A program made the position numbers and the translations under genes. The notes under the pieces are model-generated. The model worked only from the letters and a program-made list of their open reading frames with translations, searched no databases and had not been told where the DNA came from. From Alphaproteobacteria bacterium (GTDB lineage Bacteria; Pseudomonadota; Alphaproteobacteria; UBA7887), in NCBI GenBank assembly GCA_965216755.1, contig CBDCGL010000011.1, positions 2,720,001 through 2,784,000 of the forward strand: a stretch of DNA of 64,000 bases, given 5' to 3'. Shown in pieces: positions 355 to 59,924 of the stretch (its first letter is position 1; each line of letters opens with the position of its first letter).

Positions 355-3300
355 TTAATGAAAATTCCGGGCGCGGACGGGAAGGTCGCGCGGATCGCGG
401 GGCTGTCGAGCGGCCTCGTCGGCGTGGGCGGGCGCGTTGTCCATGGTGCCTTTGGGACCGGCCAGTTTGCGCAATGTGTCGGTGAAATCTTCCAAATGTT
501 CCGCGACCACATGGATCACGGCGCCTTCGCGTTGCACCGTGCCCTGCACCGCCAGCAGCTTGGCCCCCAGCACCACACGCCGATAGCGTTCGAACGCATC
601 GGGCCACACGATAATGTTGGCAACCCCGGTTTCATCCTCCAGCGTGGCGAAAATCACGCCCTTGGCGGTGCCCGGCCGCTGGCGCACCAACACCAGACCA
701 GCCAACTTCACCCGCTTGCCGTCGGCCGTGCGCACCAGCCGCGCATTGGGGATGATGCCGCGATGCGCCAAATTGCGACGCAGCAAAGCCAATGGATGCT
801 GCTTCAGCGACAGGCGCAGCACGTTGTAATCCTCGACCACCTCCTCGCCGAGGCTCATGTCGGGCAACGCAACCGCGGGTTCGGTGCCGGCGACCGCGTC
901 GCCATGGCGAGCTTCGGCGGCGGCGAACAACGGCAAGGGTGGTTCGCCCAGGCCCTTGATCGCCCATAGGGCGCGACGTCGGGGCAAGCCGAGGGAACCG
1001 AACGCGTCCGCCTGGGCCAGCCGATCCAGTGCCGCCGCGCTCAACCCCGCCCGCCGCCACAATGCGCGCGGGCTTTCATAACCGGGGCCACGCGCCACCA
1101 TCAGACGCGTGGCGTCCTGCTCCTTGAAGCCTTTGATCTGACGCAAGCCGAGGCGCAGGGCGACGCCGCCGGCCGTGTCGTCCGGCTCCAGCGTACAATC
1201 CCAATCACTGCGATTGACATCGGGTGGACGCACGGTCACGCCGTGATCGCGGGCATCGCGCACGATCTGGGCCGGGGCGTAAAATCCCATTGGCTGGCTA
1301 TTGATCAGCGCCGCCGCGAAGGCGGCCGGATAATGGCATTTCAGCCATGATGACACATAGACCAGCAGAGCAAAACTGGCGGCGTGGCTTTCGGGAAAAC
1401 CATATTCACCGAAGCCTTCGATTTGATTGAAGCAGCGTTCGGCGAACTCACGGTCGTAGCCGCGCGCGACCATGCCCTCAACCAGCTTGACGCGAAAATT
1501 GTGGATCTCGCCGGTTTTGCGAAACGTTGCCATGGCCCGCCGCAACTGGTCGGCTTCCTCGGGCGTGAAACCGGCGGCGACCACGGCGATACGCATCGCC
1601 TGTTCCTGAAACAGCGGCACGCCCAAGGTCTTGCCCAAAACCTCGCGCAGCTCTTCGGACGGAAAGGTCATTTTCTCCTGCCCCGACCGACGGCGCAGAT
1701 AAGGATGCACCATGTCGCCCTGGATCGGCCCCGGACGCACGATCGCCACCTCGATCACCAGGTCATAAAAACTGCGCGGCTTGAGTCGCGGTAGCATGCT
1801 CATTTGTGCGCGGCTTTCGACCTGAAACACACCGATCGAATCGGCCCGGCACAACATGTCATAGACCACCGGATCTTCCGGCGGCACCGTCGCCAAGTTC
1901 AACGGTCTGTCGTGATGCTGGGCCAAAAACGTGAATGCCTTGCGCACACAGGTCAGCATGCCGAGCCCCAACACGTCCATCTTGAGCATGCCAAGCGTGT
2001 CGATATCGTCTTTGTCCCATTCGATCACCGTGCGGTCTTCCATGGCCGCGTTCTCGATCGGCACCATTTCCGACAGTCGCCCTCGGGTGATGACGAATCC
2101 GCCGGTATGCTGCGATAAATGACGGGGAAAGCCGATCAGATCTTGGCTTAACGACAAAGCCATCCCCAAACGGCGATCGCTGGGATCCAATCCGACTTCG
2201 CGTACGTGATCCGGGTTGACGCCATCGCTGCTCCACCCCCACACGGTGCGCGCCAGGGCGCCGACCGTGTCCAGCGACAACCCGAGCGCCTTACCGACCT
2301 CGCGTACCGCGCTGCGCGCCCGATAGGAAATCACCGTCGCGGTCAGGCCGACCCGATCGCGGCCATATTTTTTGTAGATATACTGGATCACCTCTTCGCG
2401 CCGCTCATGTTCGAAATCAACATCGATGTCGGGCGGCTCGTTGCGCGCCGCGCTGATGAAGCGTTCGAACAGCACGTCGTTGCGGCTGGGGTCGACCGCG
2501 GTGATGCCGAGGCAATAGCACACCGCCGAATTGGCCGCCGAACCGCGACCCTGGCACAAAATACCTTGGCTGTTGGCGAAACGAACAATGTCGTAAACGG
2601 TGAGGAAATAGGGCGCGTAGGACAGTTCATCGATCAAACGCAATTCATGATCGATTTGGCCGCGCACTTTGTCGGGCACGCCGTCCGGATAGCGCGCCGT
2701 TGCGCCGTCGGCCACCAAGTCGACCAGGTAGGCTTGCGGCAAGCGGCCGGCAGGGGCCAGTTCGTCGGGATATTCATAGGCCAAACTGTCGAGCGAAAAA
2801 GTGCATGATTCGGCGATTTGAACACTGCGCCGCAACGCTTCTGGATAGGTCGCAAACAGCCGTGCCATTTCGTCGGCGGCTTTAAGGTGCCGTTCGGCAT
2901 TCATCGCCAGCCGCAGGCCGGCCTGATCGATGGTGCAATGTTCCCGAATGCAGGTCAGCACGTCTTGCAAAACGCGCCGATCGGGCCGGTGATAATGTAC
3001 GTCGTTAGTCGCCACCAAAGGCGTGCCGGCGTTGTCTGCAAGCGCGGCGAGGCGTGCGATGCGGGCGGCATCATCGCCCTGATAACGGTGGCTGGCGGCC
3101 AAAAAGCACGGCCCCGGCAGCCGTTTGTTAAACGCCTTCAGCCAGGTCGCAAAGGCGGCATCGGGCCGATCCGGCGGCAGCACGATCAACATATGCCCGT
3201 CATGCTCGTCATGCAGGTCGTTATGGTTGAGCAGACATTGGCCCTTTTCCGCCCGCCGTTTGCCGCGGGTCAGCAGGCGCGACAAACGGCCATAGGCGGC

Positions 3301-34507: not shown

Positions 34508-35383
34508 GTGATGATTCGACGGGCGATTGCCCAGCTGGTGGCGCTCACCTTCTGCGGTGCCGCCGCCCATGCCGGAGACACCAACTCGCACAGCGCGGCG
34601 GCGGCTGGGCCGGTGACGCGTGACCTTGGCGGCACCGTGGTACGCGCGCGCGATCCAGTGCCGCTTGACTCGACGGTATGGCAAGAGCTGCGCGCCACGA
34701 TGTTGGGTGACGCGCCGGCGGTCTATTCTGACTCCAAGGTCCGCCTGGTAATGCCGCGCACGGTCGAGGACGCGTTCAATGTGCCGGTGGTGGTCAAACT
34801 GTCTGACCGGATCGGCCCTGTCGCCCAGATTGTCGTGATGGCCGAGAACAACCCGATCCAGACGGCGGCGCAAATTTTTCCGCGCCGGTCGATCGGCGCC
34901 ATCGGCATGAACATTCGCCTTGAGCAAACGACACCGGTACGCGCCGCCGCGCTTGACGCCAATGGCGTTTGGCACGTCGCGACCACCGAAGTGGAGGTGA
35001 TGAATCCAGGCGGCTGCTCGACGCCGATCGGCGCCAGCGGGGCAGGCGCGGCGCCGGTCGGCGCGATTGCCGTCAAACGCTTCGCGCGGCCAGACCGCGC
35101 GACCCGGTTGAAAGTCGGTATCACCCATCCGATGGATACCGGTTTCGCGCCCGACACCAACGGCGACATTGTGCCGGCCTACTATGTCGACACGCTGACT
35201 GTCACCGATACCGCCGGACCGATCGCCGATCTGGTCACTTGGGCGGCGCTGTCCCCCAATCCAAGCTTTTTTTTCGACCTGCCCGAAGCGCGGCAAAGCG
35301 TTCGCGTGACCGCGTCAGACACCAGGGGGCGCGCCTTCGAAGCCCTTGAAGCTAGCCACGAGACATCAGACAAGCCGTCTTGA
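34508..35383 (+). CDS. Fused SoxYZ-like carrier (quinoprotein dehydrogenase-associated type)
   Basis: Signal peptide, ENNP, IRLEQTTPVRAAA, GGC swinging-arm motif (NPGGCS), SoxZ-like THPMDTG and LSPNP. Confidence 0.82.
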   Translation: MMIRRAIAQLVALTFCGAAAHAGDTNSHSAAAAGPVTRDLGGTVVRARDPVPLDSTVWQELRATMLGDAPAVYSDSKVRLVMPRTVEDAFNVPVVVKLSDRIGPVAQIVVMAENNPIQTAAQIFPRRSIGAIGMNIRLEQTTPVRAAALDANGVWHVATTEVEVMNPGGCSTPIGASGAGAAPVGAIAVKRFARPDRATRLKVGITHPMDTGFAPDTNGDIVPAYYVDTLTVTDTAGPIADLVTWAALSPNPSFFFDLPEARQSVRVTASDTRGRAFEALEASHETSDKPS

Positions 35384-35669
35384 TGGGCCACACCGCGCGG
35401 ACGGTGTTTGATGTGTTGGCGCCTTCGCGCCTGGATCATCCTGCAAGGTCAATACCGACGGACCGCTTCAGGTGACCATTCAATGCTCGTTGAAATCTAA
35501 CTCTTCACGTTCGCTTCGACGGGTCGGCAGATGGCGGCCACCAGCGGCGTCCGGCAGGGCCGTTGTCGTTGACGGCATCTGGTTCCAAGACTGGCTGGCC
35601 TTGGAGGTGCCTGCGTGGAGCCCTGGCACCAGCCTATCAAAGCCACAGCATTGTAACCCATTGATATAT

Positions 35670-35678
35670 TGGCGCACC
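35670..35678. repeat. Left att core (duplicated tRNA 3' end)
   Basis: TGGCGCACC, followed by TTCGAACC at 35692 as in the tRNA copy. Confidence 0.85.
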
Positions 35679-35776
35679 TCGAAGGAGAAACTTCGAACCG
35701 CCTCTTTGAAACACTACAAGACTGGGACACCTACCTCAAGGAGAACACTGTCGAGTTCAGGGAGCCTGCACCATGA
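35678..35776 (+). other. Detached 3' segment of the serine recombinase gene (joined in the excised circle)
   Basis: In frame with the shared GCG CAC codons, reads LEGETSNRLFETLQDWDTYLKENTVEFREPAP*. The TGA (35774-35776) overlaps the mobC ATG (35773). Confidence 0.75.
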
Positions 35777-36222
35777 CGCAGCACTCCCAGGATTGGAATC
35801 GCGGCAGCACCTCAAAGGCTTTCACGGACGCGGCGAGGCAAGCCCAATCACAGCCGTATGAAAAACCGGTTCCATTCTCTCTGCGTCTGACGCGCGAAGA
35901 ACGGGCGCAACTGCATGCGCAGGCTGGAGATCAGCCACTCGGTGCCTACATTCGCCACCAATTGCTAGGCGACAAAGCCCAAAAGCGCCGCCGCACACGC
36001 CGGCCCGGAGTCGACCACCAGAAGCTTGCATTGGTACTTGCCGAACTCGGACGTTCGCGGCTCGCCTCCAACCTGAACCAACTTGCCAAGGCAACAAATA
36101 TGGGCACGTTGGACGTATCCGCCGATCTCGAACAGGAGCTCCGTGAGGCTTGCCAGTCCATCGCGGCGATGCGTGAGAAACTAGTCTCGGCCCTGGGCGT
36201 GAAGGTGGAGTCTGGAAAATGA
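35773..36222 (+). CDS. mobC: MobC-like relaxosome accessory protein
   Basis: RHH-like FSLRLTREERAQL..LGAYIR and LAELG...SNLNQLAK motif. ATGA overlap with the relaxase. Confidence 0.85.
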   Translation: MTQHSQDWNRGSTSKAFTDAARQAQSQPYEKPVPFSLRLTREERAQLHAQAGDQPLGAYIRHQLLGDKAQKRRRTRRPGVDHQKLALVLAELGRSRLASNLNQLAKATNMGTLDVSADLEQELREACQSIAAMREKLVSALGVKVESGK

Positions 36223-37511
36223 TACTCGTAGGAAATCAGCGGGGCGGAGCGAAAAGCTTGGCCCTCCATCTGCTGAAAGACGAGAACGATCATGTGGAGG
36301 TGTTCGAACTTCGGGGCTTCGCCTCGGATGAATTGCTCCCTGCACTGAACGAAGCCTACGCCGTGAGCCGGGGCACGCGCTGCAAGCAATTCCTGTTCTC
36401 GCTCAGCTTAAACCCACCGCGTACCGAGAATGTCGAAACGGGCGTGTTTGAGAACGCTATTGACAGAATCGAGGAAAAGCTGGGTTTACAGGGTCAGCCC
36501 CGCGCCATCGTCTTTCATGAAAAGAACGGCCGCCGTCATGCGCATGCGGTGTGGAGCCGGATCGACACAGGTGAAATGAAGGCAGTTCCCCTGCCCTACA
36601 CGAAATTCAGACTGCGGGACATATCGCGTGAGCTTTACCTGGAGCATGGCTGGACCATGCCGCACGGTCTTATGAACTCCGAAGCGCGCGATCCTAAGAA
36701 CTTCACCTTGGCGGAATGGCAACAGGCCAAGAGGATCGGCAAAGACCCACGCGAAATTAAGACCGTCTTCGAGGATTGCTGGGCGGTGAGCGATACGCAG
36801 GCTGCGTTTGCCCATGCCCTAAAGGAGCGCGGCTACGTTCTCGCACGCGGCGACAAGCGCGGTTTCGTGGCGCTCGATTTCCGTGGTGAAGTCCACTCGG
36901 TCTCCAAGCGGGTCGGGATCAAGGCGAAGGACGTGCGCGCCAAGCTGTGCGATGAGGAATCTCTGCCTTCCGTCGATAAAGCCAGAAGCCAGATTGCCGA
37001 GGGCATGGCGGCGCGGCTTCAGGAATTAGAGGGTCAACACCGCAAGACAATTGATGCTCGCACAGCCGCGCTTGAACAACGTTGCAGGACGTTGACGCGC
37101 CAACATGTGGATAAACGACGGGCCATGTCCGAATTCCATGAAGCCCGCCAGCTACGAGAAAGGTGTTTACGCCAGGACCGGTTCCGAAGCGGTTTGCGCG
37201 GCCTCTATGACAGGGTGACAGGGCAGCATAAGAGGATTCGTGAGCGCAATGAGGATGAAGCCTGGCAGGCCCTTTTGCGCGACCGGCGGGAGAAAGATGC
37301 ACTGATATTCCGGCAGCTCGAAGAACGTCGGAACATTCAAGATCGACTTGAAAAACTCAGGTCGCTGAAGTCAGAACGGACAACCGAGCTCAAACGCGAC
37401 ATCGACGCGTACCAGGAGATGAAGGAAGGCGAGCGTGAGAAACTGGAACGTCATCGCAGTGACAAACCACGCATCCAGCGGCGACGGCCCGGCAGAGACC
37501 TGGGGAGATAA
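36219..37511 (+). CDS. Relaxase/mobilization nuclease (MOBP-like)
   Basis: MILVGNQRGG, FSLSLNPP, AIVFHEKNGRRHAHAVWSRID (3-His HUH motif), coiled-coil C-terminus. Confidence 0.9.
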   Translation: MILVGNQRGGAKSLALHLLKDENDHVEVFELRGFASDELLPALNEAYAVSRGTRCKQFLFSLSLNPPRTENVETGVFENAIDRIEEKLGLQGQPRAIVFHEKNGRRHAHAVWSRIDTGEMKAVPLPYTKFRLRDISRELYLEHGWTMPHGLMNSEARDPKNFTLAEWQQAKRIGKDPREIKTVFEDCWAVSDTQAAFAHALKERGYVLARGDKRGFVALDFRGEVHSVSKRVGIKAKDVRAKLCDEESLPSVDKARSQIAEGMAARLQELEGQHRKTIDARTAALEQRCRTLTRQHVDKRRAMSEFHEARQLRERCLRQDRFRSGLRGLYDRVTGQHKRIRERNEDEAWQALLRDRREKDALIFRQLEERRNIQDRLEKLRSLKSERTTELKRDIDAYQEMKEGEREKLERHRSDKPRIQRRRPGRDLGR

Positions 37512-41342: not shown

Positions 41343-43013
41343 TTAACGTGCCTTCCAGATTATGAGGCTAGCGAGTGAAAGTATTCGGATCATGTCGATA
41401 ACTTTGTTGTGGTCAAAGCGCAAAAGGCCAAGGTGGGCTCCTTCATTGCGAATGACCCAGAAGGAGAGCAAGGCCCGAACGACCGGATTGTAGGCGCCGC
41501 CCGCCTTGATGCGCGCGATCTGCGCGAGCCTACTCGGCAAAGTGCTCTTGCCCGTATCTACGAGCTTTCCGTAGCGCGTAAATAGAGGGCAGAGATCAAC
41601 CGGCCCATTCACATTAAAAATGCGCCGAAGCTTTCGGGATAAAGTATCACCGCGCGGCTCAAGGCCTCGGTCGATAATCGCTTCATTGGCAATCATCTCA
41701 CATAATGTGGCCATGTTAACGAGTTCGGATGTCGAAGCCGCTCGGTGAATTGGATCGTCCCGCCGCTCCAGATCAACGAGCCGCCGGAAATGCCAGTAAT
41801 ATTGGTAAAGTCCTCTTTCTTCCAACCAATCGCAAAAATGACCTAATTCTGCTTCACTGACCGGAAATGGAGCCGGCAAAGGGCCAAGCGCTTCATCCGC
41901 CCATCGCTTTAGCGAGCGGATCGTCAAGGAGCGCTGCTCTTCCGTCCAGTCGGGATAAACCACTTCAAGTGTAGGTCTGAAATGACCCATGCGCCGTCCT
42001 ACGCGAGCGACTACATCGCGGGGATTAATCGCCGTCGCGCTGCGCAAGAACATGATCGAAGAATGGATGTTGCGCTTGTACTCCTCTGCTACAGCCGCAG
42101 GGCCGACCTTCTGCGCGTTATGCCACCACTCACACTGCTTGCCGATAAAGCTGATCACATCGTCTTCGGATAGTCCGCTTGCGCGAAACGTCTGATCCGC
42201 GATCTCACGTTCGCGTCGCAAATATCGCTGCCATGGCCTGTAGGGTATGCGGCCATGTTGATCGCGGTCGCCTATGAAAGTTTGAAGCGAGTTATGCGCA
42301 TAGGCATGAAAATACCCTACCGCCTTAAAGTGCCGCTCGTACTCTCTAAGCTCACGAAGTTCGCGGTAGCCCTCAATATTGACGCTCTGTTGTGAGCGTG
42401 TCCTTAGCTCGTCAAGAGTTAGCACATTGCCACGCAGGACTTCTGTTCCTAGATGCTCGTCATCAAGCGGATAATAGATATGCACGCCCGAGCGCAGGAT
42501 CGCAGCGAGCCAGAATATTTGCCAGTAGTGATAGAAGCTTGGCGTATCGTGATCGGGGTTCGAAAGGATGGGACCGCCATCAGTTTGATAGAGACGGACG
42601 CGGCGGTCTTCCCATGATGTGAAGCTATCGCGCGAAAACTCCGTCTGGATAAACGGACGATGCGCATCATCGAGCACGTCGAGCGCGTGAATGCTCTCTC
42701 CATAGCGGTGCGCATCGGGCCAGCGCGCGATGGCCTGCATGAGAGAGGCGGCGTCATTAAGGCGCGACCCGTCCGGCTCGATGGGATCGACGATATCGAC
42801 ATGCGGGTAGGTCTCACGGGTGCAACGCCGCAAAATATCCGCAGGCAGATTGATCCGGCACACGGGCGTCAGCAGACCTTCTCTTTCAAGAAACTCCATC
42901 AGCTCCCTTGCAGGAGGATGCGTGCTTAGATCGAGATCAACGGCGTAATCGCACAGTTCTTTTTGACGTATGTAGCGCCGCCCGAATCTGTTTTTTGTTC
43001 TTATTGGCGTCAT
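41343..43013 (-). CDS. Hypothetical protein with C-terminal HEPN-like RNxxxH motif
   Basis: Start taken as ATG 43013 (MTPIRTK), 19 bp after the herA stop. Helical C-terminus with IRNEGAH. Confidence 0.7.
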   Translation of the reverse strand: MTPIRTKNRFGRRYIRQKELCDYAVDLDLSTHPPARELMEFLEREGLLTPVCRINLPADILRRCTRETYPHVDIVDPIEPDGSRLNDAASLMQAIARWPDAHRYGESIHALDVLDDAHRPFIQTEFSRDSFTSWEDRRVRLYQTDGGPILSNPDHDTPSFYHYWQIFWLAAILRSGVHIYYPLDDEHLGTEVLRGNVLTLDELRTRSQQSVNIEGYRELRELREYERHFKAVGYFHAYAHNSLQTFIGDRDQHGRIPYRPWQRYLRREREIADQTFRASGLSEDDVISFIGKQCEWWHNAQKVGPAAVAEEYKRNIHSSIMFLRSATAINPRDVVARVGRRMGHFRPTLEVVYPDWTEEQRSLTIRSLKRWADEALGPLPAPFPVSEAELGHFCDWLEERGLYQYYWHFRRLVDLERRDDPIHRAASTSELVNMATLCEMIANEAIIDRGLEPRGDTLSRKLRRIFNVNGPVDLCPLFTRYGKLVDTGKSTLPSRLAQIARIKAGGAYNPVVRALLSFWVIRNEGAHLGLLRFDHNKVIDMIRILSLASLIIWKAR

Positions 43014-43032
43014 CGCATTGCACTCGCATAGC

Positions 43033-45171
43033 TTAGTCCGGCGGCAAGGCTTCGCCATTTGCCGGTGGGTCTTCGCCTTCGGCCTGCTCCCATGATGATG
43101 CGATAGGAGGCCAGTCTGGAGGCACACCCTCCCGGCGCAGCCAGGTACCCCAGAATTTCGGATCATCCGAACGCGGACGTTGTGGCCTCTGCAGATCACG
43201 AATGCGAATAAGCACAGGTGTTGGCACGGCCCACCCGAGAAGAATGGCCTGTTGCGAGGGAAGAGTTGGAAGTTCGCCGAGAAGCCCGCCCAGAGCATCG
43301 GGAACCAGGCGGCGGACTAGATTCTGGTCTACATCATTGACGATACGGTGAAGCAGGAACGAATTGCACTGCGCGAGCACGGTTGGTGAAAGCTCTAATG
43401 GGCGCTGCGAGGCAAGAACCAAGCCCAACCCGAATTTGCGCCCCTCTCGTGCGATACGCTCAAATGTCTGACGGCACAACTCAGAGGCTTGCGCGCTGGC
43501 ACCGACATCGGCGTCCCGGCGCACAAAACTGTGCGCTTCTTCGAGCACAACGACCGTGGGCAAAGAAGCATCATTTTCTTTGATGTGACGCTGCAACGCC
43601 TCGAAGATCAGGCGGGATATGACAGCAATAGCAATATGAACGACATCCGAAGGAACAAGCGAGAGATCGAGGATAACAAGCGGTTCCTGATTGCCTTCTA
43701 CCGGCCCTAGAAGACTATTGAGCCATGAGCCAAGCGAATCGGCACCCTCGGTGTCGATCACGGGGCGGAGCCCTGCATCGCCAAGCATAACCTGTATTCG
43801 GTTTATGAGCGGCTCAACATTGTTCAGCGCCTGCCCACCCGTTGCCATGGCAACGTCGTGGATGCGGTCGGGAAGCGCGGCGACATCAAAGCGAACGGGC
43901 GCATCCTCACTGATTTCGCCGTGCGTTGCTGCGATGGAAAAGGCGTCGGTAATCGTGCGGAGCTGTGCTAGTACGATTTGCACATCGGCTGGCTGAAAAT
44001 CGTTGTAGCCAGAGGAGTTTTGTGATGTCCAGTGGCGGCGCGCGCGCACTTGTTCAATCGGATCACGAATGGCGATAATGGCGTCTTTCAGATCAGCCGC
44101 GTCCGCGCCGTACTCTTCCAAGGTTGCCTCGTCGGTCTCGCTCAGCCCGAGAAGTCCTTCGAGCAATGATCCAAAATCACGATTCTGGGGAAACCCGGCG
44201 ACGCTTTGGGGCAATTCGGCATAAAGTTGTTCTACTTGACGCACATAGCCGTTGTAGCGGCGAGTGGCTTGCACACTTGCCGTCATTGCTGATGAGCCGG
44301 CGTTACGCAATTGCCGCAGCGCTCTTAGGAGTAAGGGGCGTTGCACTCCGGGTTGTGCGGAAGTGAAGGCAGCCCATTCCTGTCCGTTCCAGAGCCAGCC
44401 GGGCACAGTGAGTGGACGTATATCACCCTGACCGCCAACGGAAAAGCGCCGCACAGGCAATGTCCCATCGTTAAACGCCTGCGCATATTCGCCGTTGGGA
44501 TCAAGGATTATGAAGCGGGCGTTGGCAGGCTCGCCATTTTGCCCGTCCGGCTGGGCCGCCTTAGCGCTTTCCAGAGACCAGCGCACGATGCCTGCGACCG
44601 AGCACGACTTGCCGCTTCCGGTATTGCCCAGAACGGCAAGATGCCTACCAAAGAGTTTATCGGGATGGACCCACACGCGGGCGTTGCCTGCAAAAGGCGC
44701 CGTTCCGATTTGAATGAGTCTATCATCGGTCTTGGCTTCGACAATCGAGCGCAATTGGATAGCGCTCGGAAGGAGAACAGGATCGCCAACTGAGGGTAAA
44801 ACCGGAACACCGCGTTCAAGAGAGTAAAGCGGCTGGCCGTCTTCATCCTCGCCTTCGCGGAAGAGCGTCCCGAAGGGGATGGCAATCACGGTGCGGGCCG
44901 GAAAGGGAAGATCGACAAGCGCTTCATCCTTTTTACCGTTACCAGGCCTTGCGCGGACGATGGAGATTTCCTTGATAGCCGCAACGACAGCTCCGGTCTC
45001 ATTGGGAACCAGAACGTAGGCGTTTACTCGCGGAAAACCTGTCGGCGTGCCAGTATTAAGCGCTGTAGCCTGCGGCGTTTCGTTGAAAAGTGCGATACGT
45101 AGCTCGTCCGCTGTGACTGTTTCGACCCTGCCAACAGAGAGCGTTCCGATACGCTCGACAATCGTAGTCAT
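43033..45171 (-). CDS. HerA/FtsK-family ATPase (anti-phage HerA type)
   Basis: HAS-barrel-like N-terminus, RHLAVLGNTGSGKS, ILDPNGEY, VLEEAH, RIAREGRKFG, SQRP, QCNSFLLHR. Confidence 0.93.
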   Translation of the reverse strand: MTTIVERIGTLSVGRVETVTADELRIALFNETPQATALNTGTPTGFPRVNAYVLVPNETGAVVAAIKEISIVRARPGNGKKDEALVDLPFPARTVIAIPFGTLFREGEDEDGQPLYSLERGVPVLPSVGDPVLLPSAIQLRSIVEAKTDDRLIQIGTAPFAGNARVWVHPDKLFGRHLAVLGNTGSGKSCSVAGIVRWSLESAKAAQPDGQNGEPANARFIILDPNGEYAQAFNDGTLPVRRFSVGGQGDIRPLTVPGWLWNGQEWAAFTSAQPGVQRPLLLRALRQLRNAGSSAMTASVQATRRYNGYVRQVEQLYAELPQSVAGFPQNRDFGSLLEGLLGLSETDEATLEEYGADAADLKDAIIAIRDPIEQVRARRHWTSQNSSGYNDFQPADVQIVLAQLRTITDAFSIAATHGEISEDAPVRFDVAALPDRIHDVAMATGGQALNNVEPLINRIQVMLGDAGLRPVIDTEGADSLGSWLNSLLGPVEGNQEPLVILDLSLVPSDVVHIAIAVISRLIFEALQRHIKENDASLPTVVVLEEAHSFVRRDADVGASAQASELCRQTFERIAREGRKFGLGLVLASQRPLELSPTVLAQCNSFLLHRIVNDVDQNLVRRLVPDALGGLLGELPTLPSQQAILLGWAVPTPVLIRIRDLQRPQRPRSDDPKFWGTWLRREGVPPDWPPIASSWEQAEGEDPPANGEALPPD

Positions 45172-46448
45172 GCCGCCCCGCCTTCGCAGTCAGGCTCTCC
45201 CTGGCCCGTCTTTCCCCGCCGTTCAACCAGTTCACTCATTCGAATGGTTAGCGGATCAATGGCAGGCTTGGGCAGATAGTGTGCGACAAGCTGAGCAATA
45301 TCGCCGAAGTGTTTGCCAAGAAGGAGCGTGAGTTGCTGCGGCCTTCCAGCGCGCTCCACAAATGCAGAAACTCTTTCATGCGGCTTTTCACCCCAACCGA
45401 GAATGACGAGGTGCGTAGACGGGATCGTCAGCATGTCCCCGATAACTCTGTTGATGTGGTCGTCGCCAAAACCGAAGCCATAGCTTACAAGAACGTTGTT
45501 CGGCTGGCAGATTGATGATGAAAAATCGCGGAAGAGATCGGCATAGGGATAGGCAGCCGTCTCTACGTCCTTGACCGCATTGGGATAGATCATCACCGAG
45601 TTGCGCGGGCTATCAGGCACCGCAGGATGCGTTGCGTCTGCACCAAAGGGCAGGCCCGTGCGGTAAAGGCGCGGTTGTTCGTAGCGCCAGTCGAGCGAAC
45701 CGTGAAGCTTTGTAAAATGCATCACGCCTTCAAGATGGCGGGGCTCACCGCGAATACCCGGCGGCGTGTAGTGCATATCGATGTGCAGACGGGATGATCT
45801 GAATTCCGGGTCAAGTGCACCAATAAATCGGTCGATGATGCGAAGCCCGGCATGATCGCAGCCATGTTCAATCAAGCGGTCATAGTTGGTGGTAAATATG
45901 TGTAACCTTTCTCGCGATGCTGCGCGGCTGGCAAAACTCATCAGGAAGGAAACTAGAATCTCACTTGGCGAAGGCCCGCCAGCGGCGGGCACCGTGTTCA
46001 AGCCGTCGGCGATGCCTTTCTCAGTCGCAAGCACGTCCTTGATGAATCCGCCAAGCACATTGTCGATTGCCGCTTCCCAGGCAGGAGCGTCCTCATGTTC
46101 GAGAATTTGCAGACCGGCGAGAAGCGCGAGCGCGGCAGAAATTTGGTCTTCAATATTGGCGCTGCCACGCCCCATGCCTTCGGCCATCTTCTTCGCGTGC
46201 GCGTTAACCTTCTCCACGCCTTCGCAATCAAATTCGGCCTCGGCCATGGTGACGGGCGCGGCACCGGCTTGAACAGCAATGCCGGTGGTAAAGCCATTGC
46301 CGAGAAGAAGGGACAGGTGTTCGGCTTGAAAGACAGCTGACAGCCATGGCTCGATACGTCTGCGCCATGCGCCCGTATCACTAGCCGGGTCTTCGGGAAC
46401 GTGCGTCTCACCACCGATATGAACGATATGATCATGATCCCAATTCAT
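45168..46448 (-). CDS. SIR2-like (SIR2_2) protein
   Basis: [41 protein letters not shown] overlaps with both neighbours. Confidence 0.9.
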
Positions 46449-47182
46449 GACCTTGCCGCCTCCGCTGCCACATGGCCTGCGAGCTCGCTGACAAAGGTCC
46501 GAAGGCCGGTCATTTCGCTAAGGTCTGAGTATTCGCCGGTACCGGCGCCGTTGCGCGGCGATATGATGACCGACGCCGCCGTGTAGAGTTGCTCCTGCAC
46601 CAACTTACGACACAAGATGTTGTAACGGTCGGCATAGGACGCAGTCTCAAATTCAGCAAAAACCGGAAAATGCGGTGAGATATCCTTGACCGGCGCGCGT
46701 GATTTCGGGGCATCCTCGAGCAACATGAGCCAGCCAACAAAGGGCCGCGGCTGTTCGCCGAATGCGCCTTCGCGATAGGCGGTCCACAGGTCGTGGGCAT
46801 TGCCGATGGCCTCTTCGGTCCGGTTGTTGAAATTGTTGCCGAATGACGGACCGACTTGGCTCTTGAACTCCAGCACCGCGACCAAATGGCCCCGATTCAT
46901 TACGAGCAGGTCCCACTGCTTCGTTGGCCGAAAATAACCCGGAAGCGTCACGACCCGGCGCTTTCTGTGGATGTCTGCGAGACCGAGACCGTTGGCGCGC
47001 ACGATCTCCACGACCAGCGCGACGAACCCATCCATATTCTTGCCCGCCGTGACACCAGCGCGCTCGCCCTGATCTGCGTTGCCTGACTCGATTTGTTTCT
47101 GACGGGCCTGCTCACGATTGCCCCAGAACGCCTGAACAGCCTCGCGCGCCTTTTGTTCGTAATTTGCCAGATCAATCGCCAT
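46445..47182 (-). CDS. Type II restriction endonuclease, PaeR7I/XhoI family (predicted CTCGAG)
   Basis: [52 protein letters not shown], closely resembling R.PaeR7I as I recall it. Confidence 0.9.
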
Positions 47183-47193
47183 GCCCGTCTTTC

Positions 47194-48921
47194 TTATGCG
47201 TTTCCGTTTCCTCCGAGTGCGGCCCTCTCATCCTTGGACAAGCGATAGAGCTTGAATGCCGCCTTGTTGCAGGCCTCCGTATCACCGCGTTGTGCCGCCT
47301 TGATTAGCGCGCCCTTGATATCGGCAGGCACGTCCTGCCAGCGCGGCAGGCGAATTCGCCGCAGGTATTGCGCCTGAAAGCGGAAATAGCCACCCCGCAT
47401 CTGCGTTGAGTAGATCGAAACGAACAATCGTGCAATCCCTGATTGCAGCACAGACTGCAAAGCCTTCAAGTCCCATTTATCGGACGTGATGAAATAAAGA
47501 TTGTGGTGCGGGTAAAGCTTGCCGTCCTCATAGACGATATGGGCTTCACCCTTGATGTCGGGGATGAGCAGCTTCGGCTTGGTGGCGAGTACCGGGTAAA
47601 TCCGGTCAATGGTACGATACCAGTTTGCCGGTGCTTTTTTTGCAATATGCCGTTTGGCGATCTTGTCCTTGCGCGCTTCCAGATAGGCGCGCAGCTTGGG
47701 GTAGTTGCCGAGATCAACAAGCCCGACTTCATCGGCGAACGGATTGACGATGCCAAGCCCACGCCATTTGACCTCGCCGCTCAAGATATCGCGCGTCATG
47801 ACCAGCGGCAGCTTGCGGTCCGGCTCCACGTCAAGTTCGTCGAAGGGGCCGATAAAAGCCTTGTCATTGCCGGTTGCAACACCGATCCCGACCTTGCACC
47901 CGGCTTCTTCGATAAGCGGAAACTCGCTTTCCAGCCTGCGCACAAGGGCAAGCTGATCCGGGGATTCGAGTATCCAGGGTTCCGTTCCCGCCGCGACCCC
48001 CGCTAGCTCTTTGACAACGGAATCCGGACCCGGCACGTGTTTGGAAAGCAGCTGTTTGCCTAATGATCGCAGCGCTTTGTGGCTAATCCCCGGGCGGCGC
48101 GCGATGCGGGTCTTTCCCGGCTTTTCGTTGGCGATGATGGTAATGGCCGGATAAGCGATCACATCCGCATGGAAAGCAGGCGTATTCACCATGTCCACAT
48201 AGACCTTCAAGTGAAAACGCTCGGCAACAAGCTGCCGAAGCTGCCTGCCATAACGGTTCTTCATCCACCTGTCGGCGCAGATGAAACCGAGCGCGCTTTT
48301 TGTGCGAAGCAGATTCAGTGAGCGCTCGATGAAGGGGATATAGAGGTCGGCCCTGTCGAAGATCGTTTTGTACCGTGCACGGTACTCTGCCATCAGAGCG
48401 TCCGGAATAAGTTCCTGCCGAACGTAAGGTGGGTTGCCAACTACGTAGTCGAATGCGTCGGGTATGGGTGTGAGAAGAAAATCCCCACATACCAGCCAGG
48501 TATTTGTGAGACGCTCCGCATCACGATACTTTATCCCAGCTTCTATGAGCTGCGTGACAACGCGTTTACGCGTTGCTGAAAACGTGCTCTTGTGAAGCTC
48601 AACCGCTTTGATGCTGTCTTTGAGGCTCTCGAACGCATTGCCCTTTCCGCGGTGTCGCCGCCATGCTTCGAGCAAGCGCTCGACGATGATCAGAAGAAAA
48701 TCCCCCTCGCCAAATGAGGGCTCTAGGAGGCGGCGCTCGAATAGAGGCTTGTTGGGCGTGTAGCCCAAGAGGTCGAGAATGAACTCTACAACTTCGCGGC
48801 GCGTGTAGATTGCGCCTCGTTCTTCAATACCGGCAACAGCAAGATCTTTTAATGCATCCTCAACCGGACACATACCTGGAATCGACATCTGGCGGAGCTG
48901 AGGGTGTGCTGGTTCCGGCAT
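47194..48921 (-). CDS. N6-adenine DNA methyltransferase, gamma class (M.PaeR7I/TaqI-like)
   Basis: [11 protein letters not shown] (motif I), VVGNPPYVR (motif IV), ADLY..FIE, TaqI_C-like KLLIPDIK. Confidence 0.93.
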
Positions 48922-49142
48922 CAATAAGTCTCTCCCGCTTTGGCCTGTTCCAATTCGCCGAGAGTCACCTCGATGGTCCCGCCATTCCTGTGACGCTGCA
49001 AAAACTCGCGCATGGATCGTCGAATGAGCCAGGAAGCCGTGACTTCGCTGTTCCGGGCCAGTTTGTCGAACGCGGCGTAGTCATCCGGATCGACCGTCAC
49101 CGTAATTCGCTTCATCGGCTTAAGTATTTTACGCTTCGGCAT
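48921..49142 (-). CDS. Ribbon-helix-helix (CopG-like) regulator
   Basis: [28 protein letters not shown]. Its TGA overlaps the methyltransferase ATG. Confidence 0.78.
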
Positions 49143-51799: not shown

Positions 51800-52492
51800 A
51801 TGCCTGCATACGAAAGTCGGTTTTCGGAAAGAAGTTTCACCACCTGCGTGTCTAGGAGATTTGAAATGAAACGTGATCTTTACCGCCGGAAGCGAACGCG
51901 TGGCGACAGCCCACGTATTGCGAGGAGCGCCCCAACATTTTTGACGCGTTACCCAAGAAGCTCCGAAACATCTGAGTCCGGTGGCCCAACCGACCAAATC
52001 TACAGCGAACTCCGTTACGCTTACGACTATTTCAATACGGTACTATTTCGTGGAGTACTCCCTCCTTGCCTGATCACACTGCAACGGCATCGCCATGCCC
52101 TTGGCTTCTTCGCCGGTGGTCGTTTCGCTAATTCGGAGCATCAATTGGCCGACGAAATAGCCCTCAATCCGAGCGGGATGTCGCGGTGCTCAATTATACA
52201 GATTCTCTCGGTTCTGGTGCATGAACAATGCCATCTCTGGCAATTTCATTTCAGTGAATACGACGGCCGGCGTGGGATCGTACGGCCGTATCATGACCGG
52301 GAATGGGGATCGAAGATGGAGTCGATCGGCCTCATTCCCACCAATACGGGTAAGCCAGGCGGCAAGCGAACCGGACGGCATGTATCTCATTACATAGTTT
52401 CGTCGGGTCGTTTCGCCGTGGCGTGCGCCACCCTTCTGTCCTCGGGTTTCAGCATCTCGTGGATGGAACGGGTGCTTGTCGCGCGAGATTAA
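51800..52492 (+). CDS. SprT-like zinc metalloprotease
   Basis: YDYFNTVLF..LP, EIALNP, LVHEQCHLWQ, YHDREW..KM..IGL. Start uncertain. Confidence 0.85.
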   Translation: MPAYESRFSERSFTTCVSRRFEMKRDLYRRKRTRGDSPRIARSAPTFLTRYPRSSETSESGGPTDQIYSELRYAYDYFNTVLFRGVLPPCLITLQRHRHALGFFAGGRFANSEHQLADEIALNPSGMSRCSIIQILSVLVHEQCHLWQFHFSEYDGRRGIVRPYHDREWGSKMESIGLIPTNTGKPGGKRTGRHVSHYIVSSGRFAVACATLLSSGFSISWMERVLVARD

Positions 52493-53995: not shown

Positions 53996-54877
53996 ATGGC
54001 CAGTTTTGGAGGCTACAGACGGCGCGACCCTATAAGCCGGGCGTTGCTCATATCAGGGATTATCATCATTCCAGGCCTGGCGATTGGAGCGACAACTTGG
54101 GGTGTAAGCCGGGTCGCTGACATTGAACGGATGGACCGGGAAACTTTTTGCTACAGGCAAGATGAACAAGCGCACACGGGATTCATGATCGATGCATCTT
54201 TTGATAGCATCACAAGTGAACGGCAAAAGCGCGACTTGCGCAATGCGTTGATCGGCGCTTTTGAAAATATGGAGCCTAACGGACAGCTCTCGGTCTTCAC
54301 GACCGCCAAGGACAAAATCGGCACTTTTCTGGTACCGGTGATCCGTTTTTGCCGCCCCATGCGAACCTTGGACGAACAGACGCAGGTTGGCGTGGCCAAA
54401 CAGACGCAGGCTTATCTATCTCGTCATTATGAAGAGGCCCGACGCCTTTTCATTGGCCAGGTTGATGAACTGATAGCCAAGGCTGCGGACCCTGAGCGAC
54501 AAGCCGATCACAGCCCGATTATGGAGCAAGTTCAGTCACTTTCGCACCATGGCTTTTCAGGGCGGCTACGCAAGATGGTCATCTACACGGATGGTCTGCA
54601 AAACAGCGAGGTACGACGGTTCTGCTTGGTAAAAGGTCATTTGCCGAGCTTTGAGAGGTTCAGCCAACATTCCGATTACAGGCTGGTGCGCCCTGGTTCA
54701 CTGGCAGGCGTGGATATCGAAATCCTTTTGGTCGAGCATACGCTTTTCCCGTCAAAGGACTTGAAGTTCTGCACTAACAATGAAATCCGCGCCTTTTGGA
54801 CGGGATATTTCGAGGCAGCGGACGCGGCCTCCGTGCAGATGATCCGTCTGCCTTATGGCGGGCTGGGCCGGTCGTGA
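53996..54877 (+). CDS. Membrane-anchored hypothetical protein with vWA/MIDAS-like motifs
   Basis: N-terminal TM, FMIDASFDS, VIYTDGLQNS. AGGAG RBS; GTGA overlap with the T4CP. Confidence 0.65.
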   Translation: MASFGGYRRRDPISRALLISGIIIIPGLAIGATTWGVSRVADIERMDRETFCYRQDEQAHTGFMIDASFDSITSERQKRDLRNALIGAFENMEPNGQLSVFTTAKDKIGTFLVPVIRFCRPMRTLDEQTQVGVAKQTQAYLSRHYEEARRLFIGQVDELIAKAADPERQADHSPIMEQVQSLSHHGFSGRLRKMVIYTDGLQNSEVRRFCLVKGHLPSFERFSQHSDYRLVRPGSLAGVDIEILLVEHTLFPSKDLKFCTNNEIRAFWTGYFEAADAASVQMIRLPYGGLGRS

Positions 54878-56637
54878 CGTACGGATCAAATAGAGGCGGA
54901 GGCAACGTAGAGGGGCCGAGTTTCCTGGTACTGTTGGCCGTTGCGGGCGGCCTGATCTGGCTTTCCATCCATCTTGGGCCGCCCATGGTGCAGGGACAGC
55001 TTCGCCCGCTCCCGGCGCTAGTCTTCTTCGTCGCCGGTATCATGCTGCTTCGCCTCGCCATTCGCGGATTGGAACTGTTGGCCTGCCTGATCGACTGGCA
55101 GAGCAGCCGAACCCCAACGGGAAAGGATGGCCTGGCCGCATGGGCGAGGAAGAACGATTACAAGGCGGAATTGCGCGAGGCGAATGGCGGGCCGTTCTGG
55201 GGCCTGAGCCTTGGTCGCAAACCGGCACCACTCTTCATTGACTACGTATCCAATGCGATGACTGTCGCGCCTGCCGGATCAGGAAAAGGCATCTGCACAG
55301 TCGTTCCGAACGGCATGAGTATCCGCGCCAGCAAAGCCTTTGCGGATTTCAAAGGCGAGCTTGTCTGCATGCTCAAACAGCCGCTGGAAGCGCGTGGGGA
55401 AATCGTACGTATACTCAATCCCGGAGGCCTGTGGGAAGAAACAATCGGGCCAAGCGAGCTCTATAGCCCACTCGATATTCTTGCGGATGATCTGAACCGG
55501 CCTGGTGGCTTGCGCGATATCCCAGACGATCAGCGCGAGATGAATAATCAAATCCTCCCCGAGCCGAGTGAGCGCGAATCAGAGAATTCCTATTTTAGGG
55601 AAGGTTCAAGGCGGCTGATGGCGGATGCCGAGTTGATGGAGGTGATGGTCGATGAATATGACGCCACATTCTCCTCGGCCGCGCTACTGATTGAAGACCG
55701 TCAGCGGCTGGAGGACATGGCGCGATGGATGGCCGGAGTCGATTTGGACGGGAAGCCCCACCCGGGCGGACCGTTTCCGATTGAGCAAACACCGTGGGCA
55801 GCGAAGCACGATGTGCGCGATGTGGCGGAGTTTGCACAGCTTGTGCGCGCGCGAGCCCACAATCTCCTGGCGTTAGCGACTGCGGACGATTCGCGGACGT
55901 TCGATTCCTTCATTACTGGAGCACAGCAAGCCCTTGCACCATTCGCGTTTGGCCGCATCGCACCTTGCATGGGCCGTTCGACGTTCAGCATGGACGAACT
56001 GAAGCAGGGTGACCATCCGACCAACCTATTTATCGTTGCCGATGCAAGCCGTATGGAAGCATACAAGCCTTTCATCGGGTTAATCCAATGGTGCTGCATG
56101 ACCGCGATCAAGCGCCATAATAACAAAGAGCGACCGGTCTATTTTATCTTAGATGAGGCCACTAACTATAGAGTCAGCGGCCTGGAGAGCCTTCTGACCT
56201 GGGGGCGGTCTTATGGGCTCCGGCTACACGTCATTTTCCAGGACTTTGCCGCATTTGAACGGATCTATGGAAAGACCGCATTGGACACGCTGCTCAGCGA
56301 GACCGAAATCAAACAGATACTGCCGGGGCAGCGCTCACCGAAAACCTTGGAACTAATCTCCAAGAAGATGCTTGGGGATCAATCGATCATGGCTGCAAGT
56401 ATCGGACGCGATAATCACTTGTCCGGACTCAGAGAGACTATGAGCGAGACCGGCCGGCCCTTGATGACGATGGACGAACTTAGACGCACTGACAAGGGAT
56501 TGCTGTTTGTCCGGCGCTGCAAACCGATCCTTTTCGAACCTGTTTCTTATGCGGAAATTTCGCCCTGGCGCGATCAGGTTGGGATCAATCCCTACTTCGG
56601 CAAACCATACCGGAAGAAAGTAAAGCTGAGACTCTGA
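54874..56637 (+). CDS. Type IV coupling protein, VirD4/TraG family
   Basis: Two N-terminal TMs, APAGSGKG, DFKGE, ILDEATN, GRSYGL..IFQD. Confidence 0.9.
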   Translation: MTYGSNRGGGNVEGPSFLVLLAVAGGLIWLSIHLGPPMVQGQLRPLPALVFFVAGIMLLRLAIRGLELLACLIDWQSSRTPTGKDGLAAWARKNDYKAELREANGGPFWGLSLGRKPAPLFIDYVSNAMTVAPAGSGKGICTVVPNGMSIRASKAFADFKGELVCMLKQPLEARGEIVRILNPGGLWEETIGPSELYSPLDILADDLNRPGGLRDIPDDQREMNNQILPEPSERESENSYFREGSRRLMADAELMEVMVDEYDATFSSAALLIEDRQRLEDMARWMAGVDLDGKPHPGGPFPIEQTPWAAKHDVRDVAEFAQLVRARAHNLLALATADDSRTFDSFITGAQQALAPFAFGRIAPCMGRSTFSMDELKQGDHPTNLFIVADASRMEAYKPFIGLIQWCCMTAIKRHNNKERPVYFILDEATNYRVSGLESLLTWGRSYGLRLHVIFQDFAAFERIYGKTALDTLLSETEIKQILPGQRSPKTLELISKKMLGDQSIMAASIGRDNHLSGLRETMSETGRPLMTMDELRRTDKGLLFVRRCKPILFEPVSYAEISPWRDQVGINPYFGKPYRKKVKLRL

Positions 56638-57735: not shown

Positions 57736-57796
57736 CCGAAGGAAAATCTAAATCGGGGCATGAAAATAGTTGCCGTGCGAATAATAATGGTTTAAT

Positions 57797-57859: not shown

Positions 57860-58199
57860 GTGAATCAGACAGACAAAAAGAGAGAAAGGAGAGCACACAG
57901 GCAGACAGGAAATGCCGCCCCCGCGGACTCGCTTGACCTTGATCCCCACGAATATCGGGAGCACCTGGAAGGTTTGCACCTAACTGAAGCCGAGGAAAAT
58001 GAGCTTCTGCTGGCGCTATGGTCCATTATGAAAGCCTTTGTCGACTTGGGTTTCGGGGTAGATTCTATCCACCATTTTTTCCCGGCGCTTGGGCCAAATT
58101 CTACGCAAGCTTCGCCGGAAGCGTTAGAATCAAACGATCGGAAATCTGCTCGTCAGTCAGAGGAAGGCAGTTTTGATCCGGCGAGAAAGATGGTGGGCC

Positions 58200-58213
<14 letters not shown>
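57860..58213 (+). CDS. Small hypothetical protein overlapping the recombinase start
   Basis: [27 protein letters not shown] helical core. Overlaps the recombinase 5' end. Confidence 0.65.

Positions 58214-59924
<1,711 letters not shown>

Follow-up and report, generated by a model that had tools for sequence, protein, structure and literature searches.

The myxophage Mx8 carries attP inside its tyrosine integrase ORF, and the gene is changed by integration (IntP/IntX); in Tn916 and Tn4451, circle-specific expression comes about through the joined ends. In the ssrA islands of Dehalococcoides, dsiB overlaps att and reads into the tmRNA gene (McMurdie et al., 2011; PMC3146451), and the parts of that report available to us contain the authors' speculation that full function is perhaps reached only on the circularized element. 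With regard to targets, the available sections of the Islander paper state that no targeting of tRNA genes by serine integrases is known (PMC4383910), and integrative mobilizable elements (IMEs) with a serine recombinase are described, in the accessible part of another account, with insertion inside protein genes (PMC5704250).

Here we analyse a stretch of 64,000 nucleotides from an alphaproteobacterium (the window), in which an earlier note made from the sequence alone had seen a recombinase gene split by its own att site. We consider it quite probable that the window holds an IME of ~24 kb whose recombinase inserts it at the very 3′ (CCA) end of a tRNA gene, with attP inside the 3′ end of the recombinase gene itself. 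In contrast to both statements on targets, about 120 close homologues of this enzyme in Alpha-, Beta- and Gammaproteobacteria do target tRNA genes, and the deposited proteins of the family carry tRNA-derived junk ends while their true C-terminus is missing.

The island and its recombinase

The mobilizable island (~24 kb, 35670–59721) lies at the 3′ CCA end of a tRNA-Arg(CCG) gene (59713–59789, minus strand), the integration target, which remains intact. On the plus strand, the attR core TGGCGCACC (59713–59721) is the antisense of the 3′ end of this gene, CCA included, and the attL core (35670–35678, plus strand), again TGGCGCACC, repeats this antisense end with its CCA. The crossover dinucleotide would be located within TGGCGCACC or at the TGG end of the core; in the family at large, att cores measure 6–9 bp and start with TGG in all cases. 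As the repeat of the 9-mer core is not significant by itself (4 matches in the window versus 1.41 expected, with 8 of 100 shuffles reaching 4), the island boundaries are based on the tRNA end, on the shift in GC content (~0.55 between the cores versus ~0.62 outside the island) and on the family-wide architecture.

At the left end of the island, a mobC/NikA-like relaxosome accessory gene (35773–36222; PF21983 with E = 1.2e-5 and 25.8 bits, slightly below the cut-off of 27; PF05713 with E = 0.0016) is followed by a gene for a MobA/VirD2-type relaxase (36219–37511; PF03432, 50.4 bits) whose ATG overlaps the mobC stop. Towards the right end lie a gene for a TraG/VirD4-like type IV coupling protein (54796–56637, by Pfam), a conserved 117-aa ORF (orf117, 57860–58213) and the large serine recombinase gene (58200–59924), the start of which is overlapped by orf117; all five are on the plus strand. 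In between, the minus strand carries defence-gene cargo (41343–48924): by Pfam, a HerA-like helicase grouped with a SIR2-like protein, and an XhoI-type endonuclease (a restriction enzyme) grouped with an Eco57I/TaqI-like methylase. The cargo also includes an unknown 651-aa ORF, and a SprT-like ORF is found at 51800–52492. Mating-pore families, VirB4-type included, were absent from the 20 ORFs scanned, 10 of which, several of them longer than 200 aa, had no Pfam match. With its own recombinase, a NikA/MobC-like protein, a relaxase, a coupling protein, cores at a tRNA end and a GC shift, and because the mob genes come without a pore family among the scanned ORFs, the island is best called an integrative mobilizable element with defence genes.

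An ORF of the orf117 type stands directly upstream of the recombinase gene in 9 loci (the window; L036 at 2544–2906; L090–L099). This ORF gave no Pfam match and may encode an accessory or directionality factor; its core begins Y..L..., and it has an LLxxLW helix with a loose likeness to the tail helix described below. Rfam detected no RNA family in 35200–36300. A pattern scan for promoters and terminators, a weak method, yielded nothing in 35300–36300 and a single weak promoter-like site at 57760–57788.

The recombinase has a catalytic domain at residues 9–155 (PF00239, 83.3 bits; cut-off 23.3) with the conserved motif YCR(I/V)S, in which S16, which we take to be the nucleophile, is present in at least 90% of the sequences. 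A recombinase domain (PF07508, 26.3 bits; cut-off 21.1) and a zinc-ribbon (PF13408, 39.4 bits; cut-off 25.3) are also recognized, and the four cysteines of the latter (Cys 295, 298, 319 and 324) are all invariant. Residues 1–507 keep every domain on one side of att; the C-terminal 32 residues alone are exchanged.

Two C-termini of one gene

The ORF of the integrated recombinase starts with the ATG at 58200, crosses the attR core in frame and ends with the stop at 59922–59924. Of its 574 aa, codons 1–507 (to 59720) are element-encoded, and the final 67 aa are translated from the antisense of the tRNA gene and from host flank. In that frame, the left end (35672–35776) reads AHLEGETSNRLFETLQDWDTYLKENTVEFREPAP* with the TGA at 35774–35776. 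This P′ arm of attP (plus strand) encodes the native recombinase C-terminus (AH and 32 new residues) and its TGA, and the predicted joined recombinase is thus 507 + 32 = 539 aa long. The TGA overlaps the mobC ATG (35773–35775), which follows the core by 94 bp, and the end of mobC in turn overlaps the relaxase ATG (36219). The split of the gene by its own att site is thereby confirmed, and all sequence statements of the earlier note (the 539-aa joined frame, the 32-aa tail, the 67-aa antisense tail and both ATGA overlaps) hold.

We compared 119 close recombinase homologues (57–71% identity) from a large protein collection. Their alignment stops at about residue 505, beyond which 114 of the 119 continue into tRNA-antisense tails (MARPxGFEPxT..SIQLSYG; 108 by pattern and 6 by eye); of the other five, three stop at the core or ahead of it and two (P0111 and P0116) have different tails. 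In the window and in these 114 homologues, then, the gene runs with its 3′ end across att into tRNA antisense and has its stop outside the element. The host-encoded junk tails of the homologues range from ~10 to more than 250 aa, and an antisense tRNA gene adjoins the recombinase 3′ end in 8 of the 10 genome loci fetched. The tRNA targets in recombinase loci are Arg-CCG, Arg-TCT, Ser-GCT, Leu-TAG, Leu-GAG and Thr-GGT, with Thr-CGT and Met-CAT found elsewhere.

For the far end, 80 loci from Alpha-, Beta- and Gammaproteobacteria were fetched with the relaxase as anchor, 78 of them with a mobC match. The helix pattern of the tail occurs just upstream of mobC in 69 of 79 loci (the window counted; about four are spurious, namely the mis-picked L036, L067, L075 and L078), and 61 of 79 show an overlap between the tail stop and the start codon of mobC in the mobC frame (60 ATGA and one GTGA; an earlier overlap rule had counted 60), counts that overstate the number of independent events since many loci are close kin, for instance a Nitrosospira cluster. 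Tail length varies from 34 to ~70 residues, the overlap with mobC being preserved throughout. From the 61 tails, 36 were hand-picked for diversity and clean coordinates, leaving out near-identical Nitrosospira copies, and gave the consensus xxLEGExSNxLFETLxDWxxQLxxxxxFxEPxP, in which L15 and W18 are invariant. A subgroup with long tails (~60–80 aa; L007, L011, L015, L017, L018, L020, L022, L023, L024, L032 and L071) has its TGG-N19-TCGAAC half-site further upstream, and several of its members possess an extra (L)LxEW(N/K)xNxK before the usual helix. In P0125 the tail frame continues into mobC-like sequence and in P0130 into an HTH-like protein, indicating that the gene behind the tail differs between elements.

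Joined genes occur in nature. A profile of the tails retrieved P0123, a 378-aa metagenome protein with its N-terminus cut by the contig end, which has Recombinase and Zn-ribbon domains and ends in ...LPFNALGGFLEGKSKMARLEGQTSNRLFETLEEWNTYLKDNVPYFQEPQP, the recombinase body being followed by KSKMARLEGQTSNRLFETLEEWNTYL...EPQP. P0022, a homologue in the integrated form with 77% identity to P0123, is identical to it over the last 45 aligned residues and diverges into tRNA antisense after KSKMA. Twelve plasmid records match P0123, none of them over at least 80% of its length, and a plasmid-borne intact joined gene was therefore discarded as a candidate, as was the 547-aa 'tail ORF' of L077 as a recombinase, which is actually the antisense of a host gene. 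In L036 (2906–4531) and L072 (2866–4573) the chromosome has a decayed recombinase gene that leads directly into tail and mobC, and recombinase fragments joined to a tail are present in L026 (4355–4561) and P0124; these are probably tandem or remnant copies, and the three chromosomal ones preserve attP-like junctions.

Six elements could be read at both ends; in all of them the recombinase frame stays open across a core beginning with TGG and leads on into the helix. The ends were paired by anchoring on TGG, pairing by the longest common substring having been dropped as it picked chance matches. Besides the window (TGGCGCACC), the pairs and their shared cores are L002/L091 (TGGCGGAGA), L032/L093 (TGGTGCCC), L105/L067 (TGGTGG), L107/L096 (TGGTGC) and L109/L099 (TGGTGC). 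In the last three the tail stop is TAG or TAA and no mobC lies behind it; the element of L067 has its mobC at the recombinase end, divergent from the recombinase. It follows from these three pairs that the tail belongs to the recombinase and not to mobC; the coupling to mobC is a feature of a large subgroup that includes the window. Far-end conservation of the tail in homologous elements, the check proposed in the earlier note, is hence borne out (the 69 of 79 loci above, and an in-frame pN/pS of 0.37, described below), and the joined frame it had predicted is found naturally in P0123, L036 and L072, with six attL/attR pairs being in frame; the position of the tail before mobC, on which the note had also proposed a check, is seen in the 61 loci with stop/start overlap and not in the three pairs just named.

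The presumed pair L021/L092 has only TGG and scattered matches in common, with the differing cores TGGCGCGGC (L021, 4440–4470) and TGGTGCGCC (L092, ~2990–3010) at a tRNA-Arg-TCT gene; it may represent insertion into a non-cognate tRNA via TGG crossover alone, or no true pair. A search of 30 related genomes with left-flank DNA for an empty attB matched the host ORF only, with no tRNA nearby. The four public runs that hold the stretch contain it in metagenome contigs with a depth of 2–7, too low to judge the circle junction or an empty site. Neither a circle junction nor an empty attB was seen for this island, and loose ends at the tRNA in public reads were rejected as island junctions because they come from other organisms.

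A predicted docking site for the tail

The AlphaFold model of P0123 (mean pLDDT 81) comprises the recombinase and zinc-ribbon domains, a long coiled coil of two long antiparallel helices (190–238 and 242–268), a post-coiled-coil helical region, a disordered linker (331–350, pLDDT below 50) and, at the C-terminus, the tail helix (350–369, pLDDT 58–69). Matches from a sequence search of the PDB were confined to catalytic-domain relatives. All 25 PDB matches at E ≤ 0.001 in a Foldseek search with the P0123 model are serine integrases (LI 4kis, Bxb1, phiC31 and others).

We then modelled the recombinase body of the window (residues 1–505) in complex with its 34-aa tail, using unpaired alignments and three controls. 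The complex score was 0.61 (runs of 0.61, 0.55 and 0.63), compared to 0.00 for the best of the three controls; the mark set for this score is one that 58 of 80 solved complexes and 2 of 110 mismatched pairs attain, counts that are only a rough benchmark because author-supplied alignments were used. At least 65% of the contacts were common to the runs, with a partner pLDDT of at least 61. As we know of no comparable solved complex, the predictor is unlikely to have passed by reproducing a structure already known to it. In the model, tail residues 7–29 contact residues 361–368, 440–469 and 489–494 of the body, positions that make up the base of the first helix of the coiled coil together with the helices that follow the coiled coil, and the predicted contacts include the family-conserved F361, W365, A444, F447, L448, L469 and P491. 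From these models, the tail helix probably docks on the base of the coiled coil.

Such docking makes it conceivable, at a little under even chances, that the native tail changes the activity or the directionality of the recombinase. The two isoforms may also differ in stability, and a rather unlikely alternative takes this as the entire effect: the junk tail would destabilise or misfold the integrated enzyme, keeping excision rare, and the native tail would merely cap the protein. The wide range of junk-tail lengths speaks for such a swap, as does the analogy with integration-dependent immunity of mycobacteriophages, in which, according to the accessible part of the account, integration removes a C-terminal degradation tag (PMC9262239); against it, the complex model puts the native tail in a conserved groove, which is more than a simple cap would do. 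The stability swap can be compatible with an attP-in-gene IME whose circle-form enzyme regains its tail.

The P′ arm as DNA and as protein

The core-proximal part of the P′ arm looks like an att half-site. At 35692–35699 (plus strand), 22 nt after the T of TGG, the codons GAA ACT TCG AAC contain a T-loop mimic, TTCGAACC, a putative recognition motif for the zinc-ribbon domain in the attP half-site. The spacing from TGG to TTCGAAC is 22 nt in 31 of the 32 P′ arms with an exact TCGAAC, versus 17 nt in tRNAs, where the motif is the T-loop. In the available part of a phiC31 integrase study, the zinc-ribbon domain lies at attP positions 17–27 and 5 bp closer in attB (bioRxiv 10.1101/2025.05.02.651858), a shift with which the 22 versus 17 nt agree, as a matter of sequence geometry only. 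The P′ arm thus looks like a mimic of the tRNA acceptor and T-arm stretched by 5 bp, and this geometry would put the crossover at or near TGG. By eye, the P′ arm of the window also contains an inverted repeat (35679–35696, TCGAAG-GAGAAA-CTTCGA, flanked by GGCG/CGCC) that resembles a T-arm/acceptor minihelix; it recurs in L026 and is absent from the tRNA-Ser-targeting L002. Further upstream, the Arg of a conserved GxRT motif, ~65 nt before the TGG core (59648–59653 in the window), is CGA or AGA in 11 of the 11 recombinase loci where the motif search found Arg; NGA makes up 16% (57/356) of the Arg codons in eight of these genes. Codon choice in GxRT yields T[CA]GAAC, a third T-loop-like DNA motif at a fixed distance inside the recombinase gene.

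At its other end the P′ arm is occupied by signals for mobC. The last tail codons read GAG (23 of 23 Glu codons), CCR, NNN, CCA/CTA and TGA and hold a GGAG Shine-Dalgarno and the ATGA, in the window an AGGGAG Shine-Dalgarno and the stop/start overlap at 35759–35776 (plus strand). Translational coupling is implied by the ATGA overlap and could also be the task of a separate leader ORF of ~35 aa that starts at NTG (the base before TGG), is translated in both states and merely delivers ribosomes to mobC. The attL frame does begin with TTG in the window (35669–35671) and, as a consequence of the TGG core, with ATG, GTG or TTG in many relatives. We nonetheless regard a leader as improbable: the DNA upstream of NTG is unrelated host DNA without a conserved ribosome-binding site, a ribosome shuttle has no need for a helix with an invariant L..W...L, the tail is kept in elements where no mobC follows it, and in the circle, where no stop lies between recombinase and tail, fusion is unavoidable.

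The codons of the 36 tails separate the constraint on DNA from that on protein. In the block of the amphipathic helix (LFETLQDWDTYL, 35702–35737, plus strand; L22 is nearly as constant as the two invariant residues), entropy is near 0 at codon position 2 and 1.6–2.0 at position 3, the invariant Leu is written with each of the six Leu codons, and the in-frame pN/pS of 0.37 compares with 0.76 and 2.1 in the other two frames, from which we conclude that this block is selected as protein. The core-proximal codons, by contrast, are nearly fixed (GGA for 15 of 16 Gly, GAA for 19 of 23 Glu, TCG for 16 of 20 Ser and AAC for 24 of 25 Asn) and together spell TTCGAAC. By their sequence, the first ~9 codons of the tail are conserved as DNA, for the att half-site, and the last ~4 likewise, for the mobC ribosome-binding site; a tail conserved as peptide, as had been supposed, is therefore upheld for the helix block and not for the codons on either side. 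That the whole tail is conserved as DNA alone (attP half-site, mobC ribosome-binding site, perhaps oriT or operator), with a functionless peptide and equivalent enzyme forms, is very improbable, for although these outer codons are indeed fixed at the DNA level and the T[CA]GAAC kept by codon choice inside the recombinase gene indicates strong DNA-level constraint in the region, the helix has free third positions, six Leu codons and its low pN/pS in frame, and is retained in elements with no mobC behind it.

A proposed switch and its relation to known systems

In an IME that inserts into the CCA end of a tRNA gene through an attP in its own recombinase gene, the integrated enzyme would keep all catalytic and DNA-binding domains and end in host-encoded junk, and on the excised circle the P′ arm would close the ORF and restore the native tail. 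Its first ~30 bp would act as an attP half-site, an imitation of the tRNA acceptor and T-loop in which the T-loop motif is displaced outwards by 5 bp, in line with the position of a serine integrase's zinc-ribbon domain on attP versus attB; its middle would encode a conserved amphipathic helix of the circle-form enzyme, probably seated at the coiled-coil base, the coiled coil being the motif that governs serine-integrase directionality; and its end would supply the Shine-Dalgarno and ATGA overlap for mobC. In the circle, orf117, recombinase, mobC and relaxase would thus make up one co-oriented, overlapping string. Transcripts from upstream of orf117 and the recombinase would continue into mobC and the relaxase, and ribosomes ending the recombinase would restart at the overlapping mobC ATG. 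We infer, with somewhat more confidence than doubt, that the mob/relaxosome genes are expressed mainly from the circle, after excision, with the caveat that the mobC Shine-Dalgarno would also serve a read-through transcript from the co-oriented host gene at 34508–35383.

The helix would be present only on the circle-form enzyme, which must integrate in a new host, and could tune synapsis or direction at the coiled-coil base; the integrated-form enzyme, which must excise, would be without it. In its fullest form the proposal is more tentative than a tail effect as such: only the excised form would have a helix clamping the coiled-coil base where recombination directionality factors (RDFs) act, so that recombination itself adds or removes a directionality module, integration and excision are carried out by two isoforms of one gene in a widespread proteobacterial clade targeting tRNA-CCA ends, and the same 100 bp serve as att half-site, tail and translational coupler to the relaxosome genes. 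If the tail does alter activity, this would be a natural control of serine-integrase directionality, of relevance to mobile-element biology and integrase engineering, and excision, transfer-gene expression and re-integration would be kept in order without a separate regulator.

The dsiB islands resemble the present island in layout: a large serine recombinase gene always overlaps att at its 3′ end, and its stop falls beyond the island, either in antisense of the tmRNA gene or in the island that follows. They differ from it in the tmRNA target, the CcrB-like enzyme and a second small recombinase, and in the available part of the report no conserved far-end tail, selection test, mob coupling or att half-site analysis is described (PMC3146451). 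The earlier note had named no such coupling for a serine-recombinase IME; an att-overlapping gene of this class was thus already on record, while the link to mob genes holds up as a difference as far as that portion of the report extends. In the literature consulted we found no description of this proteobacterial tRNA-targeting family or of its conserved far-end tail, although the supplementary tables of Durrant et al. (PMC10083194) and TIGER/Islander could list such integrases, nor of the triple use of the P′ arm or a translational overlap with mob genes.

Integrases of the SSV family likewise have attP inside the integrase ORF, and integration alters or splits the gene, according to the accessible text (PMC7253208). 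These are tyrosine enzymes whose gene is split in two, and the SSV1 type is defined by integration leaving two non-functional gene parts, whereas in the window the domains in residues 1–507 remain together and only the last 32 residues are exchanged. In the mycobacteriophages BPs and Brujita, attP is in a coding region, attB is a tRNA gene and the exchange of a C-terminus is the switch, as proposed here; unlike here, the split gene is the repressor, the integrase is a tyrosine enzyme and what is lost is a degradation tag of the ssrA type, as described in the available part of that account (PMC9262239). Promoter switching in ICEKp1 and ICEclc, in the portion of the source at hand, similarly has joined ends placing genes under far-end promoters, with expression dependent on excision (PMC13023037). 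Circle-specific ICEs act via transcription only, whereas the junction of the window would also make a different protein and an overlapped string of recombinase, mobC and relaxase.

The proposed role of the tail comes close to the control of serine integrases by RDFs, in which, by the available part of the phiC31 study, a module near the coiled-coil base or the zinc-ribbon tip decides which att pair undergoes synapsis (bioRxiv 10.1101/2025.05.02.651858), and to artificial integrase-RDF fusions, in which a C-terminal module reprograms direction, as given in the accessible portion of that work (PMC5737554). In the window, by contrast, the module would be a natural tail of 32 aa, added and removed by recombination itself, with a putative effect on direction.
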